DNA from: a virus
Taxonomy: Duplodnaviria > Heunggongvirae > Uroviricota > Caudoviricetes
Length of the DNA stretch: 64,000 nt
Direction: 5' to 3' (one strand)
IMG/VR virus record: IMGVR_UViG_3300042486_001111
Positions 5,341-13,613 of this stretch are shown here, in pieces. Below the pieces are notes generated by a model that had not been told where the DNA came from, searched no databases, and saw only the letters and a program-made list of their open reading frames with translations. Numbering within the stretch: position 1 is the first letter of the stretch; the number at the start of each line of letters is the position of its first letter. The position numbers and the translations under genes are program-made.

Positions 5341-6029
5341 ACGAATTCCATTTCATTTGTTTCAGTATCCCAAATCACATTAACAGGTTTGTTTCGATAT
5401 TCGTATCTATCATTTAACACTGACGCATTAATATAATGCGTATTACCATCAAACACATACCCATAACCCTCATGTATGTGCCCAAATACGTGAATTTTTG
5501 GTTTTATTTCTTCAACACGTTTCATAAGTTCTTCACACCCAACGTTCTCATTTCCATAACGGACATAATCTAACTTCCCAAAAGGTGGACCGTGAGTGAT
5601 AAGAATATCCGTATCCACAGGAATCATATCCCATTTCTCTTTTAACTTTTCACCTCTAGGTAAATTAAATGCCCAATTAAAAAACTCTGGTTGCCAAGGT
5701 GTACCATAAATTACTAACTGTTGATCTTCATCGTCCCAAAGATCCATTCTTTCGTCCTGAAGATATTCAACGTTCTTATATCCTGTTAATAAACCTATTA
5801 GTTTTTCATAATCGTTCTCAAACCCAAAATCGTGATTCCCCGCAATAAAAACTTTAAAGTCGTAATTGTCTATACTATCAAACCACTTTAAAAAGTTTTC
5901 AATCTCAGTAATATACCCTCGACTAGATATGTCACCCGCACAAATAAGAATATCTCCACCAGTTAAAAAACTGTTTAGTTTTTCGTGTTTGGTGTGTGTA
6001 TCACTTATAAATGTTATTTTCTTTTTCAT
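5337..6029 (-). CDS. Calcineurin-like metallophosphoesterase (MPPED/239FB type)
   Basis: ISDTH, AGD, IAGNHD, LITHGPP and FGHIHE motifs. Confidence 0.9.
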   Translation of the reverse strand: MKKKITFISDTHTKHEKLNSFLTGGDILICAGDISSRGYITEIENFLKWFDSIDNYDFKVFIAGNHDFGFENDYEKLIGLLTGYKNVEYLQDERMDLWDDEDQQLVIYGTPWQPEFFNWAFNLPRGEKLKEKWDMIPVDTDILITHGPPFGKLDYVRYGNENVGCEELMKRVEEIKPKIHVFGHIHEGYGYVFDGNTHYINASVLNDRYEYRNKPVNVIWDTETNEMEFV

Positions 6030-6031
6030 AA

Positions 6032-6196
6032 TTAATCAAAAAAACCACCAAAATATAATAATGTTAGATGTATTGTTACACCTATCATAGTAACAAAGAC
6101 ACTGTGATTCCCTTCTTTTGGTTTACCGTGTAAATAAGAAGAAATCATTAAGTTAAGTCCAATAAGACTTAGTAAGATAATTTGTGGAACCCCCAT
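6032..6196 (-). CDS. Small 2-TM membrane protein
   Basis: Start likely MGVPQ at 6196 because the promoter at 6215-6246 overlaps the longer predicted start; two hydrophobic helices. Confidence 0.6.
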   Translation of the reverse strand: MGVPQIILLSLIGLNLMISSYLHGKPKEGNHSVFVTMIGVTIHLTLLYFGGFFD

Positions 6197-6214
6197 AATA
6201 TATAATTTAGTAAA

Positions 6215-6246
6215 CAAATATAGTTATTATTTCCCATAAAAACAAA
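6215..6246 (-). promoter_or_regulatory. Bacteroidota-type promoter (TTTG-N20-TATATTTG)
   Basis: Consensus match; drives the gene array downstream of tRNA operon 1. Confidence 0.75.
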
Positions 6247-6265
6247 TGTTTTAACATTTTTATAG

Positions 6266-6340
6266 TACCAAAGGTGAGATTCGAACTCACAAACCTTTGT
6301 TTCTAAGACAAAGAGGTATACCTATTCCCGTCACTTTGGT
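6266..6340 (-). tRNA. tRNA-Leu(UAG), short variable loop
   Basis: Acceptor ACCAAAG/CTTTGGT, anticodon arm TTTGT-CTTAGAA-ACAAA, T-arm GTGAG-TTCGAAT-CTCAC. Confidence 0.85.
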
Positions 6341-6346
6341 ATTTTG

Positions 6347-6419
6347 AGCAGGTGGAGAGAATCGAACTCTCGTCCTCTGATTGGAAGTCAGACATAATAA
6401 GCCACTATACGACACCTGC
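6347..6419 (-). tRNA. tRNA-Gly(UCC)
   Basis: GCAGGTG/CACCTGC, TCTGA-CTTCCAA-TCAGA, U73. Confidence 0.95.
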
Positions 6420-6428
6420 ATAATTAGT

Positions 6429-6554
6429 TTACCTAATTTTTAATTTTTTAAAGATATTGATTATCTTTTTGAGATTGAGATTACTTCTCCTACTCAAAAG
6501 AAAGTTCACATTTTCTTTTGATGATTTAAACGTTCCTTTTACTACTACTTTCAT
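6429..6554 (-). CDS. Small basic ORF (41 aa) inside tRNA operon 1
   Basis: Manual translation MKVVVKGTFKSSKENVNFLLSRRSNLNLKKIINIFKKLKIR. Confidence 0.4.
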   Translation of the reverse strand: MKVVVKGTFKSSKENVNFLLSRRSNLNLKKIINIFKKLKIR

Positions 6555-6569
6555 ATTATTTATTTTTTG

Positions 6570-6643
6570 TGGATACATCTCGGCTTCGAACCGAGGACTC
6601 CTGAGTGCAAATCAGGTATGATAGCCAGCTTCATCAATGACCC
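6570..6643 (-). tRNA. tRNA-Ala(UGC), one-nt bulge in the acceptor stem
   Basis: CCTGA-TTTGCAC-TCAGG; G3:U70 retained; 3' strand ATGTATCC has one extra T. Confidence 0.8.
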
Positions 6644-6648
6644 ATTAG

Positions 6649-6723
6649 TTGCGGGGGAGGGACTCGAACCCACGTAGTTCGGCTTATGAGACCGAGCTGG
6701 AACCACCTCCAGTCTACCCCGCA
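6649..6723 (-). tRNA. tRNA-Met(CAU), initiator-like acceptor
   Basis: TGCGGGG/CCCCGCA, TCGGT-CTCATAA-GCCGA. Confidence 0.85.
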
Positions 6724-6755
6724 ATTTTTAATTACACCGAATTCGGTATATTTAG

Positions 6756-6830
6756 TTCTCCCGACAGGATTCGAACCTGTGACTCCCTCATTAAAAGTGA
6801 GGTGCTCTAAACCAACTGAGCTACGAGAGA
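6756..6830 (-). tRNA. tRNA-Lys(UUU)
   Basis: TCTCTCG/CGGGAGA, CCTCA-CTTTTAA-TGAGG. Confidence 0.95.
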
Positions 6831-6836
6831 TTGTTG

Positions 6837-6908
6837 AGGTTCCGCTCAGATTCGAACTGAGGACACATGATTACAAATCAAGCGTTTTACCAACTAAACT
6901 ACAGAACC
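6837..6908 (-). tRNA. tRNA-Thr(UGU)
   Basis: GGTTCTG/CGGAACC, CTTGA-TTTGTAA-TCATG (one mismatch). Confidence 0.9.
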
Positions 6909-6955
6909 TTATTATCACCCGTATGGTAACCGCTTGATTAACGGGCGAAAAATAG

Positions 6956-7028
6956 TAGTCTCTGTAGGGTTCGAACCTACGACATCTTGCATGTAAAACA
7001 AGCACTCTACCAACTGAGTTAAGAGACT
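6956..7028 (-). tRNA. tRNA-Val(UAC)
   Basis: AGTCTCT/AGAGACT, CTTGT-TTTACAT-GCAAG. Confidence 0.95.
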
Positions 7029-7032
7029 GTTG

Positions 7033-7116
7033 CGGAAGAGTGAGGTATCGATCCCCATACCCGAAGGTACCACTAGTTTTCAAGACTAGGTCCAGCGCCA
7101 GCTGAATTACTCTTCC
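7033..7116 (-). tRNA. tRNA-Ser(UGA)
   Basis: GGAAGAG/CTCTTCC, CTAGT-CTTGAAA-ACTAG, long variable arm, G73. Confidence 0.9.
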
Positions 7117-7132
7117 AGTTTTTTTCAATACG

Positions 7133-7141
7133 TCAAAGAAC
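7133..7141 (-). promoter_or_regulatory. boxA-like antitermination element GTTCTTTGA
   Basis: Same 9-mer also at 8891, 13619 and 21370, each 5' of RNA genes. Confidence 0.6.
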
Positions 7142-7142
7142 T

Positions 7143-7176
7143 AAAAACAAAAAACCCTAAGTTTTCACTTAGGGTT
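7143..7176 (-). terminator. Attenuator intrinsic terminator of tRNA operon 1
   Basis: AACCCTAAG-TGAAAA-CTTAGGGTT followed by TTTTGTTTTT, located upstream of the first tRNA. Confidence 0.85.
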
Positions 7177-7203
7177 CCCATTTATAGTATTAAAATTTTA
7201 CGA

Positions 7204-7302
7204 TTAACTAATGTGACATACCCTAAGTATTGGATGAAGCGAATCCGCCCCTTCCATTTTCGTCTTAACGACCTCTAGTCTGTATGTGAATGTAGTTAAC
7301 AT
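7204..7302 (-). CDS. Leader peptide 1 (32 aa, MLTTFTYRLEVVKTKMEGADSLHPILRVCHIS)
   Basis: Manual translation; lies between promoter and terminator; contains the antiterminator strand CTTAGGGT (7220-7227). Confidence 0.8.
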   Translation of the reverse strand: MLTTFTYRLEVVKTKMEGADSLHPILRVCHIS

Positions 7303-7334
7303 TGAATTTTTATTTGTTTTTAATTAAATATACA

Positions 7335-7366
7335 CAAATATACAAAAGTTTAAACAAAAAGTCAAA
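7335..7366 (-). promoter_or_regulatory. Bacteroidota-type promoter of tRNA operon 1 (TTTG-N20-TATATTTG)
   Basis: Consensus match; 39-nt block 7315-7353 is identical to 9158-9196. Confidence 0.85.
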
Positions 7367-7385
7367 TATTTTTAAAAAAATATTT

Positions 7386-7760
7386 TTATTTCATATTATC
7401 CATAGTAAGTTTATCTGCAATATAAACGTGTTTTAATTCCATTTTGAATTTATTTTCGAACCACTCCTTAAAAAAATAAAGGAATGATTTGTTAGATTCA
7501 AATTCTGGTGATTCTTTAATAAAGTTTTTATAAACTTCATATCTTATTTCAAGAAAACCCCCAAACGCAAAATATGTCATAATAACATTAGGTAGTGTTA
7601 ATTCAATTGAATTAGGTTTTGTCCAAATTCTTTTTCTAATCGATTTACCGTTAAAAACATGTATCACATTTTTTTCCTTTTTAAACCTAACTTCTTTAAA
7701 TAAAGAATTAAATGTATCCTCACCAATTTTTTTTTCTGTAATTACCATATCTTTTCCCAT
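7386..7760 (-). CDS. Hypothetical protein between the two tRNA operons
   Basis: 124-aa ORF with its own promoter at 7780-7810. Confidence 0.7.
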   Translation of the reverse strand: MGKDMVITEKKIGEDTFNSLFKEVRFKKEKNVIHVFNGKSIRKRIWTKPNSIELTLPNVIMTYFAFGGFLEIRYEVYKNFIKESPEFESNKSFLYFFKEWFENKFKMELKHVYIADKLTMDNMK

Positions 7761-7779
7761 AGTTTTTGATTTATTTAGA

Positions 7780-7810
7780 CAAAGATATGAATAATTTTCA
7801 TTCTACCAAA
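7780..7810 (-). promoter_or_regulatory. Bacteroidota-type promoter (TTTG-N19-TATCTTTG)
   Basis: Consensus match, near-duplicate of 315-345. Confidence 0.8.
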
Positions 7811-7833
7811 TTTTTTAACGTTATTTTTATTTG

Positions 7834-7907
7834 AGGTCAGAGTGAGATTCGAACTCACGAAAAGTAGTTTTGCAGACTACCCCTTTAAACCACTCAGGCA
7901 TCTGACC
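7834..7907 (-). tRNA. tRNA-Cys(GCA)
   Basis: GGTCAGA/TCTGACC, GTAGT-CTGCAAA-ACTAC, U73. Confidence 0.95.
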
Positions 7908-7976
7908 GTTAGTTCACTAAACTATATTTTGCTTAATAAATTACATTTGTTTATTGTTGCAAAAATAAGTTTATCG

Positions 7977-8049
7977 TACACTCTGAGAGATTCGAACTCC
8001 CATCTTATGATCCGTAGTCATAGGTTCTGATCCATTGAACTAAGAGTGT
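7977..8049 (-). tRNA. tRNA-Arg(ACG)
   Basis: ACACTCT/AGAGTGT, TATGA-CTACGGA-TCATA. Confidence 0.95.
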
Positions 8050-8051
8050 AT

Positions 8052-8126
8052 TGGTAGGGATGGGTGGAGTCGAACCACCGAGACTACTGTATAAGAGTAG
8101 CATGTTCACCGTTACATCACATCCCC
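8052..8126 (-). tRNA. tRNA-Ile(UAU), encoded CCA
   Basis: GGGGATG/CATCCCT-A-CCA, CTACT-CTTATAC-AGTAG. Confidence 0.9.
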
Positions 8127-8134
8127 ATATTTTG

Positions 8135-8221
8135 CGGAAAGAATAGGATTCGAACCTACGGTACCCTTTCAAGTACAACACCTTAGCAGGGTGCCACAAT
8201 AAACCGCTCTGTCATCTTTCC
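8135..8221 (-). tRNA. tRNA-Ser(GCU)
   Basis: GGAAAGA/TCTTTCC, GCACC-CTGCTAA-GGTGT, long variable arm. Confidence 0.95.
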
Positions 8222-8225
8222 ATTA

Positions 8226-8299
8226 GGTGTACGATGGGACTCGAACCCACTATTGACGGAATCACAACCCGACGCCTCGACCACTTTGGCTTCATACAC
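8226..8299 (-). tRNA. tRNA-His(GUG)
   Basis: GTGTATG/CGTACAC, C73, anticodon loop TTGTGAT; no genomic G-1. Confidence 0.85.
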
Positions 8300-8301
8300 A
8301 G

Positions 8302-8372
8302 TTGTCTCCCAAGGATTCGAACCTCGATTAAGTGGACCAAAACCACTTGTCCTGCCATTAGACGAGGAGACA
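8302..8372 (-). tRNA. tRNA-Gln(UUG)
   Basis: TGTCTCC/GGAGACA, AGTGG-TTTTGGT-CCACT. Confidence 0.9.
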
Positions 8373-8379
8373 TTATTTG

Positions 8380-8468
8380 TCTAAGTGATGGGACTCGAAC
8401 CCACATAGAACTGTTACATTCATTCCTGATCCCAAATCAGGTCGGCGACCAATTGCCTACACACCTAG
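8380..8468 (-). tRNA. tRNA-Pro(UGG) with about 20-nt variable region
   Basis: CTAGGTG/CACTTAG, CCTGA-TTTGGGA-TCAGG, insert AATGAATGTAACAGTTCTAT before the T-arm. Confidence 0.85.
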
Positions 8469-8474
8469 TTATTG

Positions 8475-8547
8475 TGGAACAGGTAGGAATCGAACCTACA
8501 TTGTCGGATTTTCAGTCCGATGCCTTGACCAACTTGGCAACTATTCC
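8475..8547 (-). tRNA. tRNA-Phe(GAA)
   Basis: GGAATAG/CTGTTCC, TCGGA-CTGAAAA-TCCGA. Confidence 0.95.
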
Positions 8548-8552
8548 ATTTG

Positions 8553-8623
8553 CACACCCCCAAAGATTCGAACTCTGACCAAACGGGTTGGAGCCGTTTA
8601 TGCTACCGTTACACTAGAGATGT
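8553..8623 (-). tRNA. tRNA-Trp(CCA)
   Basis: ACATCTC/GGGGTGT, AACGG-CTCCAAC-CCGTT, G73. Confidence 0.9.
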
Positions 8624-8628
8624 GTATA

Positions 8629-8701
8629 AATGTTCAGGAAGACTTTTTTTACATTTCCAAATTAGTAGTTTTTTATTTGCTGAAATCTTCCTTTTAACAT
8701 T
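8629..8701 (-). ncRNA. Small structured element with CAGCAA motif between tRNA-Tyr and tRNA-Trp
   Basis: AATGTT...AACATT and GGAAGATTT...AAAGTCTTCC stems enclosing CAGCAA; resembles the RNAs next to the TROVE gene. Confidence 0.45.
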
Positions 8702-8703
8702 TG

Positions 8704-8786
8704 TGAGGGTAGTAGGATTCGAACCTACTCAGTCATAGACAACAGATTTACAGTCTGCCCCAACTCTCCAACTTTGGCGTACCCCC
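8704..8786 (-). tRNA. tRNA-Tyr(GUA)
   Basis: GGGGGTA/TACCCTC, GCAGA-CTGTAAA-TCTGT, long variable arm. Confidence 0.95.
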
Positions 8787-8798
8787 ATTAATTATTTG

Positions 8799-8872
8799 CG
8801 ATTCAGGCAGGACTCGAACCTGCGACAACTTGATTAACAGTCAAGGGCTCTAACCAACTGAGCTACTGAATC
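8799..8872 (-). tRNA. tRNA-Asn(GUU)
   Basis: GATTCAG/CTGAATC, CTTGA-CTGTTAA-TCAAG, G73. Confidence 0.95.
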
Positions 8873-8909
8873 ATTTAATTTTACATTATATCAAAGAACT
8901 TATGTTCTG

Positions 8910-8985
8910 TCGGTATGGTAGGGATCGAACCTACGAATCTTCTCGATATCAGCGAGATGCCTTAAACCTACTTGGCCACATACCG
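8910..8985 (-). tRNA. tRNA-Ile(GAU)
   Basis: CGGTATG/CATACCG, TCTCG-CTGATAT-CGAGA. Confidence 0.9.
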
Positions 8986-8994
8986 TAATAAATT

Positions 8995-9025
8995 AAAAAA
9001 CCCCAACTCATTTCTGAATTGGGGT
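8995..9025 (-). terminator. Attenuator intrinsic terminator of tRNA operon 2
   Basis: ACCCCAATTCA-GAAA-TGAGTTGGGGT plus T-tract, immediately upstream of the first tRNA. Confidence 0.85.
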
Positions 9026-9051
9026 ACTTTAATCCTTTATTTATTTATCTA

Positions 9052-9150
9052 TCAAAATTTAAATAACGACATAACATACCCCATCCTTCCGTAAATATAA
9101 AACGGTTGACACCACTGTATCGGATTACTATGTATGTTATTCATTATCAT
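9052..9150 (-). CDS. Leader peptide 2 (32 aa, MIMNNIHSNPIQWCQPFYIYGRMGYVMSLFKF)
   Basis: Manual translation; lies between promoter and terminator; contains the antiterminator strand TGGGGTA (9077-9083). Confidence 0.85.
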   Translation of the reverse strand: MIMNNIHSNPIQWCQPFYIYGRMGYVMSLFKF

Positions 9151-9177
9151 TTTTTACTGTTTTTAATTAAATATACA

Positions 9178-9209
9178 CAAATATACAAAAGTTTAATTAA
9201 AAAGTCAAA
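9178..9209 (-). promoter_or_regulatory. Bacteroidota-type promoter of tRNA operon 2 (TTTG-N20-TATATTTG)
   Basis: Consensus match; duplicate of the operon 1 promoter block. Confidence 0.85.
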
Positions 9210-9239
9210 TATATTTTTAAAATTATTTTTTTTAAAATA

Positions 9240-9262
9240 AAAAACCCCTAAAAATAGGGGCT
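9240..9262 (-). terminator. Intrinsic terminator after the lipoprotein gene
   Basis: GCCCCTA-TTTT-TAGGGGT plus T-run on the minus strand. Confidence 0.7.
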
Positions 9263-9286
9263 TAACAAAAATTTATTTTTTGTTTT

Positions 9287-9469
9287 TTACTTCACCTCCA
9301 CCGATGTGCTATCTACATTTTCGGTTCCTGCGGTATCATCAGAAGCAGTACCTGCATCTGTTGCCACACCATTTGTAGTTGCATCATTAGTTGTTGAATC
9401 TGATTGTGTGTTTCCACCACAAGACACTAAAAGTGTCATAACTGTCAATACCAAAAAAACTTTTTTCAT
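9287..9469 (-). CDS. Small lipoprotein (signal peptidase II type, low-complexity T/D/S tail)
   Basis: MKK plus hydrophobic stretch plus LLVS-C lipobox. Confidence 0.75.
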   Translation of the reverse strand: MKKVFLVLTVMTLLVSCGGNTQSDSTTNDATTNGVATDAGTASDDTAGTENVDSTSVEVK

Positions 9470-9598
9470 TTTTAAAAAAATTATTTAATTATTAGTTAGG
9501 CTTTTCACCCATCGGAGATTATAAGTGTCTCTAACTATACAAAACAAAATTATAAAAAAAATATGTGAAAGTAAAACTTTTTAACATTTGATAACAAT

Positions 9599-9904
9599 TT
9601 ATTTATTGTCACCATATTTTTCCTTCAAATACTTTACCCACTCTTCTTGCTTCCTACCATTAATAAAAAACCAACCCAAATTAATCTCAAACCATTTATT
9701 AAAACTGTATAATATATTTCTTATAATGAAAAAAATTGTAATAAAAAAAACTATTATTATCGGTGCAAAAGGTACCCAACCCATAAAATTTTGAAATTTA
9801 GATATGTCTTTTCTAACCACACCAGCACACATTAAAAAATATTGAACGAATAGTGTGAACGTAATCACAAAAAATACTGTAAATTTACCTATAATCTCAA
9901 ACAT
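9599..9904 (-). CDS. Membrane protein
   Basis: Two hydrophobic segments. Confidence 0.65.
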   Translation of the reverse strand: MFEIIGKFTVFFVITFTLFVQYFLMCAGVVRKDISKFQNFMGWVPFAPIIIVFFITIFFIIRNILYSFNKWFEINLGWFFINGRKQEEWVKYLKEKYGDNK

Positions 9905-13240: not shown

Positions 13241-13245
13241 TTTAG

Positions 13246-13613
13246 TGGAGGTGGAGGGTTTCGAACCCTCGTCCTTCCCATGTCCAAATGGATTTCTACG
13301 TGTGTAGTCAGTTTTTCTAAACTAACAAAATAGACAGTTCCCTTATTACACTGTTCGGTTTACTGACAACTAATCCTCAGTCTTCTTATTTATAAAGGTT
13401 CAAAAAGATAATAACCTGTATGTATTACTCGATTAGGCGAATACAACCTCTTCTTTTGCAATTGTACCTACAGTACCATTCAAAAGAATGTTTTCGTTTA
13501 GGGCTAAGCCCATGTTTGTATCGTTGCCGACTATTGTTTTTTTTAGATTAACGCTCTACCACGACACGCTTACGCCTACTCTTCTTACGCGAAGTCAAAT
13601 CCAATACACCCCC
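13246..13613 (-). ncRNA. ssrA: tmRNA
   Basis: 5' GGGGGTGTATTGGATTTGAC, 3' T-arm GAGGG-TTCGAAA-CCCTC and CACCTCC-A with G3:U70; resume context ATAGTC-GGC; tag ORF 13528-13433. Confidence 0.95.

Follow-up and report, generated by a model that had tools for sequence, protein, structure and literature searches.

We analyzed a stretch of 64,000 nucleotides (nt) from a virus of the Caudoviricetes (IMG/VR record IMGVR_UViG_3300042486_001111), which as a whole is referred to here as the window, and found that the first of two arrays of transfer RNA (tRNA) genes on it is preceded by an element, attenuator 1, in which every sequence-level feature that defines a leader-peptide attenuator is present. We interpret this element as a ribosome-mediated transcription attenuator of the trp/ilv type that gates the phage tRNA array, a reading to which we assign a probability of about 0.8, and by which the phage probably makes the tRNAs of the array only when ribosomes run short of them. 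An initial annotation, made from the sequence without database searches, had proposed an attenuator at this site. That interpretation is supported by our analysis in that the open reading frame (ORF), the match between its codons and the downstream tRNAs, the antiterminator, and the anti-antiterminator each proved specific when compared with controls. By sequence and comparison, as set out below, we establish which parts make up the element, how specific each of them is, and that they co-vary with what the array encodes.

Attenuator 1 begins with a promoter block that contains TTGACT (7365-7360), a 17-nt spacer, and TATATT, and that includes a Bacteroidota-type -7 element, TATATTTG, at 7342-7335; the TAnnTTTG element is likewise present in the corresponding units of relatives. 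The block is duplicated ahead of array 2, and the two copies are 88% identical over 85 nt, including an identical core of 33 nt whose exact sequence had no match in IMG/VR. The sequence upstream of leader ORF 1 is A-rich and lacks a Shine-Dalgarno sequence. The stop codon of the ORF is located 24-27 nt ahead of the terminator, which consists of a stem at 7179-7150 and a T-run extending to 7143, and the terminator hairpin by itself folds at -16.2 kcal/mol. Both arrays share a common layout, in which a promoter block leads to an ORF with exactly 32 sense codons, then to a strong hairpin with its T-run, and finally to the first tRNA gene; in attenuator 2, the leader ORF is at 9150-9052, the antiterminator strand TGGGGTA at 9083-9077, and the terminator at 9025-9000. 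The first tRNA gene of array 1 starts 33 nt past the T-run with no TAnnTTTG element or promoter in that gap, and tRNA-Ile of array 2 starts approximately 15 nt after the T-run of its terminator, again with no promoter between, so that neither array in the window has a bypass of its attenuator.

The initial annotation had stated that leader ORF 1 (7302-7204) uses 29 different codons in 32 positions and that its early codons sample all tRNA types encoded downstream, and both statements held. ATG, ACA, and CTT occur twice each, and 14 of the 21 codons in positions 2-22 are cognate to the array (Thr four times, Leu as CTA and CTT, Val twice, Lys twice, Met, Gly, Ala, and Ser as TCG), covering all eight downstream tRNA types. 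Homologs of this leader in three relatives (L002, L003, and L006) begin with MKTTMTYRLEVVKTKMEGADSL and precede arrays encoding Ser, Asp, Val, Glu, Thr, Lys, Met, Ala, Gly, and Leu tRNAs. In these leaders 19 of the 21 codons in positions 2-22 match the array, and all 10 types are represented.

To compare leaders with arrays more broadly, we gathered relatives from IMG/VR by using two flanking proteins together with a DNA pattern and collected units in which a perfect hairpin with a T-run has a tRNA called by ARAGORN no more than 160 nt away and is preceded, at a distance of 8-50 nt, by the end of an ORF that starts with ATG. The resulting data set comprises 56 distinct units from contigs of related uncultured phages, which form 29 peptide clusters and 18 conservative superfamilies, and the controls were 20,000 permutations of arrays for the clusters and 50,000 for the superfamilies. 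Among the 29 cluster representatives, 330 of 840 leader residues belong to the amino-acid set of their own array compared with 202 +/- 15.5 in the permutations (maximum 263, z=8.2), and none of the 20,000 permutations reached the observed match. The arrays contain 137 amino-acid types, 134 of which are found in their own leader (96.6 +/- 5.5 permuted, maximum 115), and 145 of 155 anticodons have a cognate codon there (99 +/- 6.5 permuted, maximum 124). When only the 18 superfamilies were considered, the residue match was 198 of 515 versus 121.7 +/- 12.3 (z=6.2), which no permutation reached (maximum 171 in 50,000), and type coverage was 81 of 82 versus 56.5 +/- 4.2. The match is also seen within a single leader family that precedes differing arrays (182 versus 139.6 +/- 9.4, reached by 2 of 50,000 permutations). 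In this family the scaffold of the peptide is kept and its middle is rewritten, with MSFTICSKWADER ahead of Ile/Phe/Lys/Trp/Arg/Cys/His arrays versus TSPMNQQNWNEQP ahead of Pro/Asn/Trp/Gln/Thr/Met arrays.

Cognate triplets make up 36.4% of the ORF frame versus 19.1% and 18.2% of the other two frames (p about 1e-6 and 5e-8, respectively), and their enrichment is 2.0- to 2.5-fold at codons 10-18 and approximately 1.0 in the last nine codons. A qualifying ORF is open in all 29 cluster representatives versus 16% of dinucleotide shuffles. The correspondence is apparent by eye in several related units, where runs of six or seven Gln codons stand ahead of two to four tRNA-Gln genes, a leader reading QPQPQHHPQ precedes a Pro-His-Gln-Gln array, LLNLLDLL precedes four tRNA-Leu genes, and DDDAEE precedes an Asp-Asp-Glu array. 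In most units the first tRNA gene follows 7-33 nt after the terminator without a promoter. A coding check in the style of the ratio of nonsynonymous to synonymous substitutions (dN/dS) gave a mixed outcome, in that third positions changed in excess in clusters 10 and 15 but not in family A, which evolves fast, and we do not rely on it as an argument for coding.

The RNA switch itself was analyzed in the same way. The initial annotation had proposed that a segment of the ORF can form 10 base pairs (bp) with the 5' arm and loop of the terminator, and we confirmed this pairing, which joins TACTTAGGGT (7229-7220) to ACCCTAAGTG (7175-7166), a stretch made up of the 5' arm of the terminator and the first base of its loop, and includes one G-U pair. 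Over the data set, the summed duplex energy between the 3' part of each ORF and the 5' arm of its own terminator is -322.5 versus -220 +/- 10.7 for permuted partners (minimum -268.7), and none of 20,000 permutations reached the observed value. Terminators that are unrelated to each other each have their own copy of the 3' arm within the ORF (ACTTAGGGT in the window, AAGTTCGG in L164, and AGTCGGGTTT in L105); in L099 this copy is CGAGGT, and it extends to an 8-bp pairing of CCCGAGGT with ACCTCGGG. Pairing within an ORF, between its 5' and its 3' part (1:2), is also specific, at -605 versus -442 +/- 18 permuted. In the minimum free energy (MFE) fold of the full window leader (-48.0 kcal/mol), region 1 (7302-7275) pairs with 7226-7200 as an anti-antiterminator, and this 1:2 stem is found together with the terminator. 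We mimicked a stalled ribosome by removing the first codons (ribosome at codons 5-19) and ending the transcript in the terminator loop, and under these conditions the free RNA adopts the 2:3 antiterminator, with -15.5 kcal/mol for that element.

Terminator and antiterminator are both conserved in the family of leader 1, whose homologous members in L002, L003, L006, L015, and L020 have ORFs with many synonymous differences. A further hairpin just upstream of the antiterminator strand had been put forward as a possible pause site. This hairpin does exist (7256-7231), is conserved in the family, and covaries, as seen in a compensatory change from GCG/CGC to GTG/CAC in L015 and L020, whereas the pausing role is borne out in part: 13 of 25 families have a center that is structured (z below -1.5), and a function as a hairpin at which RNA polymerase pauses or is synchronized is plausible although not universal.

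Translation of the ORF, ribosome stalling, polymerase pausing, read-through, and the cause of tRNA scarcity are what we infer from these parts, and the circuit would operate as follows. Host RNA polymerase would start at the duplicated Bacteroidota-type promoter and make a leader of approximately 190 nt, on which a ribosome would translate the 32-codon ORF, whose early and middle codons are expected to be read by the tRNAs encoded downstream. With all of these tRNAs plentiful, the ribosome would enter the last nine or so codons and mask region 2 (7229-7216), the terminator (7179-7143) would form, and transcription would end before the tRNA genes; with no ribosome loaded, region 1 would hold region 2 and the terminator would form too. 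If any sampled tRNA is scarce, the ribosome would stall upstream and leave region 2 free to pair with the emerging 5' arm of the terminator, upon which the polymerase would read through, pass a boxA-like element, and transcribe the entire array. The predicted outcome is negative feedback on tRNA supply, with some eight to ten tRNA species as the inputs of an OR gate. Scarcity may arise from the codon demand of infection or from cleavage of tRNAs by host defenses. Whether the circuit evolved mainly as a sensor of host defenses that target tRNAs, such as anticodon nucleases, with arrays induced on demand, is more doubtful, and we entertain the idea tentatively; replacement tRNAs would then be switched on with neighboring tRNA-repair genes only when a host tRNA species is being destroyed.

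Several points weigh against attenuation or limit its strength. Taken alone, the 14 of 21 matches in leader 1 (18 of 31 at the amino-acid level) are not significant relative to proteome composition, because the eight amino acids concerned make up about half of the phage proteome; the significance of the codon match comes from the Asp/Glu-carrying relatives, the sister leader at 9150-9052, and the 29-cluster data set. Leader 1 retains Glu, Glu, and Asp codons, so it still samples two tRNA types that window array 1 has most likely lost. A test based on split codon boxes was modest (41 matched and 24 unmatched with 31.4 expected, p=0.012), weakened because some arrays are truncated by contig ends. 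Most tRNA types are represented by one or two sensor codons, at which stalling should be less pronounced than at the codon runs of classical attenuators. Once its 3' arm has been added, the terminator (about -16 to -20 kcal/mol) is favored slightly over the antiterminator at equilibrium, and the switch decision must therefore be kinetic, as in classical attenuators. The exact 1:2 register of the window is not conserved base for base among relatives, and coupling of transcription to translation is assumed for the presumed Bacteroidota host. Finally, three relatives (L093, L114, and L020) have a promoter-like TAnnTTTG element between the terminator and the tRNA genes, and their arrays may also be expressed independently of the attenuator. 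Together with L163, these units have spacers of 41-87 nt between terminator and tRNA in which the promoter-like element is sometimes followed by boxA, an arrangement suggesting that an attenuated promoter and a basal one act in tandem there.

Many leader families share the motif ACATAC 12-20 nt after the ATG, with window copies at 7282-7287 and 9132-9137 (minus strand). It is found in all three reading frames (as Thr-Tyr, His-Thr, and Ile-His), which implies a role at the RNA or DNA level, and in both window leaders it pairs with GTATGT beside region 2. Its recurrence owes partly to the search pattern, and several independently found leaders have it too. Separately, 8 of the 10 codons in positions 23-32 of leader 1 (7204-7236, minus strand) are of types served by array 2 (His, Pro, Ile, Arg, Cys, His, Ile, and Ser as AGT). 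With an uncorrected p of approximately 0.03 we judged this signal not significant after multiple looks, and it could be due to chance or to a constraint from RNA pairing.

The features of attenuator 1 could also be explained without regulation by a leader peptide. The element might be an independent small-RNA gene with its own promoter, structured noncoding RNA, and terminator that merely lies upstream of the array, in which case the ORF would be incidental. Such a gene would be in keeping with the folding of both window leaders (z of -5.1 and -5.9 versus shuffles) and with the RNA-level constraint that the frame-independent ACATAC suggests. It does not account for an ORF that is open in every family, unlike the shuffles, or for a codon content that tracks the downstream tRNA set in the ORF frame only, and with most tRNA genes so close to the terminator without a promoter, their expression depends on read-through. 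We consider this explanation improbable, and the terminated leader RNA could act in trans as a secondary role. It is very unlikely, in our estimation, that the ORF is a functional micropeptide gene with the hairpin as its terminator and with tRNAs transcribed from another promoter or through constitutive leakage. The peptide is fairly conserved in the closest family, the third-position excess in clusters 10 and 15 fits such a gene, and a few related units do have a promoter-like element past the terminator; however, the peptides of different families are unrelated and yet always mirror array content, the middle of the conserved scaffold (MSFTICSKWADER versus TSPMNQQNWNEQP) changes when the array changes, homopolymeric Gln runs stand ahead of tRNA-Gln arrays, and the ORF can pair through its 3' end with its own terminator, a complementarity for which a simple terminator would have no use.

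A ribosome-independent RNA sensor that resembles a T-box, in which leader triplets pair directly with tRNA anticodons, would by design respond to tRNA identity, and the pair of terminator and antiterminator is present as it is in T-boxes. Nevertheless, the cognate triplets are in frame with the ATG and the frame is kept open, recognition of up to 10-11 tRNA types by specifier loops in a leader of approximately 100 nt is implausible, and the conserved T-box bulge that binds the acceptor end is absent. No leader, T-box, or small-RNA family of Rfam matched 7130-7400, either at gathering thresholds or with a cutoff of E<=10, and the chance-level leader and T-box hits (E of 1 to 5) are located on another terminator at 9235-9320. 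We regard a sensor of this kind as extremely unlikely.

Attenuation by leader peptides that sample several amino acids is known from enterobacteria, where the ilvGMEDA leader contains Ile, Val, and Leu codons and the thr leader contains Thr and Ile codons. Like these, the phage elements combine a short leader, predicted to be translated, whose codons represent multiple amino acids with an intrinsic terminator; an antiterminator that excludes this terminator extends into the end of the ORF, and a 1:2 pairing would impose termination on leaders that are not translated. They differ in that a phage-encoded unit would regulate tRNA genes rather than biosynthetic enzymes, in that 8-11 tRNA species are sampled per leader, each of them by one to four codons, and in that they lack sequence similarity to any Rfam leader family. 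The logic of regions 1-4 is that of trpL and hisL, and the Gln runs in relatives resemble the seven His codons of hisL; unlike in those systems, the output would be the sensed tRNA itself, giving direct feedback that does not pass through amino-acid synthesis. Aminoacyl-tRNA synthetase genes are controlled by tRNA charging through the pheST attenuator and T-box riboswitches, which likewise sense tRNA status to control a component of the translation apparatus, but the targets there are synthetases, and T-boxes bind tRNA directly without a ribosome and have features that were not found here.

Genes for tRNAs are usually seen as constitutive or controlled by growth rate. We know of no case in which tRNA transcription is fed back from the speed of decoding at the codons that those tRNAs read, and our searches of open-access papers and bioRxiv preprints turned up none, nor any account of tRNA genes controlled through a leader peptide. 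The mechanism is textbook attenuation; the novelty lies in its target, namely tRNA genes, in the sampling of 8-11 species per leader, and in the phage setting. If correct, this reading would explain how tRNA arrays in large phages are regulated and would provide a direct readout of the tRNAs that are limiting in infection, be it through codon-usage mismatch, host shut-off, or anticodon-nuclease defenses. The circuit would also represent a compact, programmable sensor of tRNA availability with multiple inputs, and leader peptides could serve as an annotation tool that predicts array content and flags recent tRNA loss, as for Asp and Glu in the window leader.

Units of this design are also encoded by Cellulophaga phage phi4:1 (KT962245), an isolated phage that has three of them, two with a shared duplicated promoter. 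A leader beginning with MKIQRLHLQELEQP precedes Pro, Glu, Gln, His, Leu, Leu, and Arg tRNAs, and one beginning with MKTNYCTYNNSNWSFSY precedes Tyr, Ser, Asn, Trp, and Phe tRNAs; these leaders, ahead of tRNA-Pro and tRNA-Tyr, are unannotated. The remaining leader is GTG-initiated, lies inside the coding sequence (CDS) of hypothetical protein Phi4113_075, and precedes an array that starts with Ala (Ala, Lys, Ile, Gly, Met, Asp, Thr, Val, Arg, Met, and Tyr). In the record of this phage (L179, Cellulophaga phage phi4:1_13, KT962245), the CDSs Phi4113_075 and Phi4113_076 are at 87989-88108 and 90117-90218; Phi4113_076 is probably spurious as a CDS and overlaps an unusual tRNA gene of a Ser-UGA/Sec-like type. 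Because the same design is found in the cultured pair of Cellulophaga baltica and phage phi4:1, the attenuator reading is directly testable. In LR745206, an uncultured phage of 634 kb, a leader rich in Thr, Met, Asn, Leu, Val, Ile, and Arg precedes an array of exactly those tRNAs. The pipeline for identifying units found none in the crAss-like phage cr111_1, in the T4-like enterobacterial Citrobacter phage Merlin, or in 120 Bacteroidota rrn-type loci carrying 126 tRNAs. The coordinates of the window features are collected in table 1.

Table 1. Features of the two attenuated tRNA arrays in the window
Feature	Position	Strand	Description
Attenuator 1, overall	7366-7143	-	Promoter copy, 32-codon ORF, central hairpin, intrinsic terminator, then eight tRNA genes
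Promoter block	7306-7390	-	Copy at 9149-9233
Leader ORF 1	7204-7302	-	32 sense codons + TAA, encodes MLTTFTYRLEVVKTKMEGADSLHPILRVCHIS; sensor codons roughly 2-22
Region 1	7275-7302	-	5' part of leader ORF 1, including ACATAC at 7287-7282; from MFE fold
Central hairpin	7231-7256	-	TGGAAGGGGCG-GATT-CGCTTCATCCA, within sensor codons; in MFE fold
Region 2, antiterminator strand	7216-7229	-	TACTTAGGGT + GTATGT, ORF codons 25-29; duplicates terminator 3' arm
Intrinsic terminator (regions 3 and 4)	7143-7179	-	13-pair stem, GAAA loop, T-run
boxA-like element	7126-7141	-	GTTCTTTGACGTATTG, between terminator 1 and first tRNA
Array 1	7116-6265	-	Ser-UGA-like gene, then seven tRNAs
tRNA-Ser(UGA)-like gene	7034-7116	-	First in array 1; Rfam tRNA-Sec model, 47.9 bits
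Array 1, remainder	6265-7028	-	Val-UAC, Thr-UGU, Lys-UUU, Met-CAU, Ala-UGC, 151-nt gap, Gly-UCC, Leu-UAG
Sister attenuator 2	8995-9233	-	Promoter copy, leader ORF, antiterminator strand, terminator
Array 2	8985-7833	-	Ile-GAU, Asn, Tyr, Trp, Phe, Pro, Gln, His, Ser-GCU, Ile-UAU, Arg-ACG, Cys
Second boxA-like copy	8884-8899	-	Inside array 2
tRNA-Ile, anticodon UAU	8052-8126		

The boxA-like motif, GTTCTTTGAYRTATTG, stands ahead of tRNA genes and downstream of the attenuator, and resembles the boxA of rrn operons (E. coli GCTCTTTAA), which is the loading site of NusB/NusE in the leaders and spacers of rRNA operons. In phage loci it is located 14-37 nt before tRNA genes, directly after a TAnnTTTG promoter or the terminator of an attenuator. 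At least 120 genome contigs, almost all from Bacteroidota, carry the exact 16-mer GTTCTTTGACATATTG, and in them it lies in the spacer between the 16S and 23S genes: a motif of the 16S 3' end is found 200-800 nt upstream at 55 of 121 sites, and a motif of the 23S 5' end 40-220 nt downstream at 38 of 105. We had considered GTTCTTTGA as a bypass promoter and rejected it, since it follows promoters or terminators and an exact 16-mer variant of it occurs in Bacteroidota 16S-23S spacers. The window element matches the Bacteroidota spacer element and shares its position upstream of stable-RNA genes, but differs in that it fronts phage tRNA genes. We read it as a putative antitermination element that would act after the attenuator decision, which suggests that the phage borrows the rrn antitermination system of its host for its tRNA arrays. 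A literature search for the boxA motif returned irrelevant matches only.

The window has a GC content of approximately 30%, and all of its long ORFs are on the minus strand. Its genes resemble the set found in large phages, with SbcC-like and primase PHROG families, and also encode a glucosaminidase/M23 lysin, an RNA-repair-type HAD domain, and a metallophosphoesterase. The TAnnTTTG promoter element together with the boxA-like motif points to a Bacteroidota host. Relatives of the window are IMG/VR viral contigs of up to 380 kb, and a BLAST search of 6000-9600 against GenBank phages gave matches to tRNA genes only and no close relative. By flanking genes, the closest relative is IMGVR_UViG_3300027659_000009 (L001/L041), with 90-94% protein identity. 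L001 lacks the entire tRNA region, and its DUF6915 and metallophosphoesterase genes are just approximately 550 nt apart, indicating that the 3-kb module with both arrays (window 6200-9300) is an indel between near relatives.

The Ser-UGA gene at the head of array 1 was not called by ARAGORN and scores as a tRNA through the Rfam tRNA-Sec model only. Its T-arm is degraded (T-loop ATCGATA) and that of relatives is canonical; the window gene may be decaying. The 151-nt gap between tRNA-Ala and tRNA-Gly in array 1 (6420-6570, minus strand) contains an ORF of 41-49 codons (beginning with MKVVVKGTFKSS) and weak structure (z=-2.8) and is without a terminator. Approximately 4 kb upstream of the tRNA arrays, the phage encodes a transfer-messenger RNA (13243-13613, minus strand; Rfam 110.9 bits) with the tag peptide AKEEVVFA. 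In L002 (3165-3324), and also in L003, L006, and L008, an element of approximately 150 nt that is absent from the window lies between tRNA-Ser and tRNA-Asp. Its parts are arranged in the order T-arm, acceptor 3' strand, loop, acceptor 5' strand, and D-arm, all enclosed by a long outer stem, and it looks like a circularly permuted tRNA-like gene.

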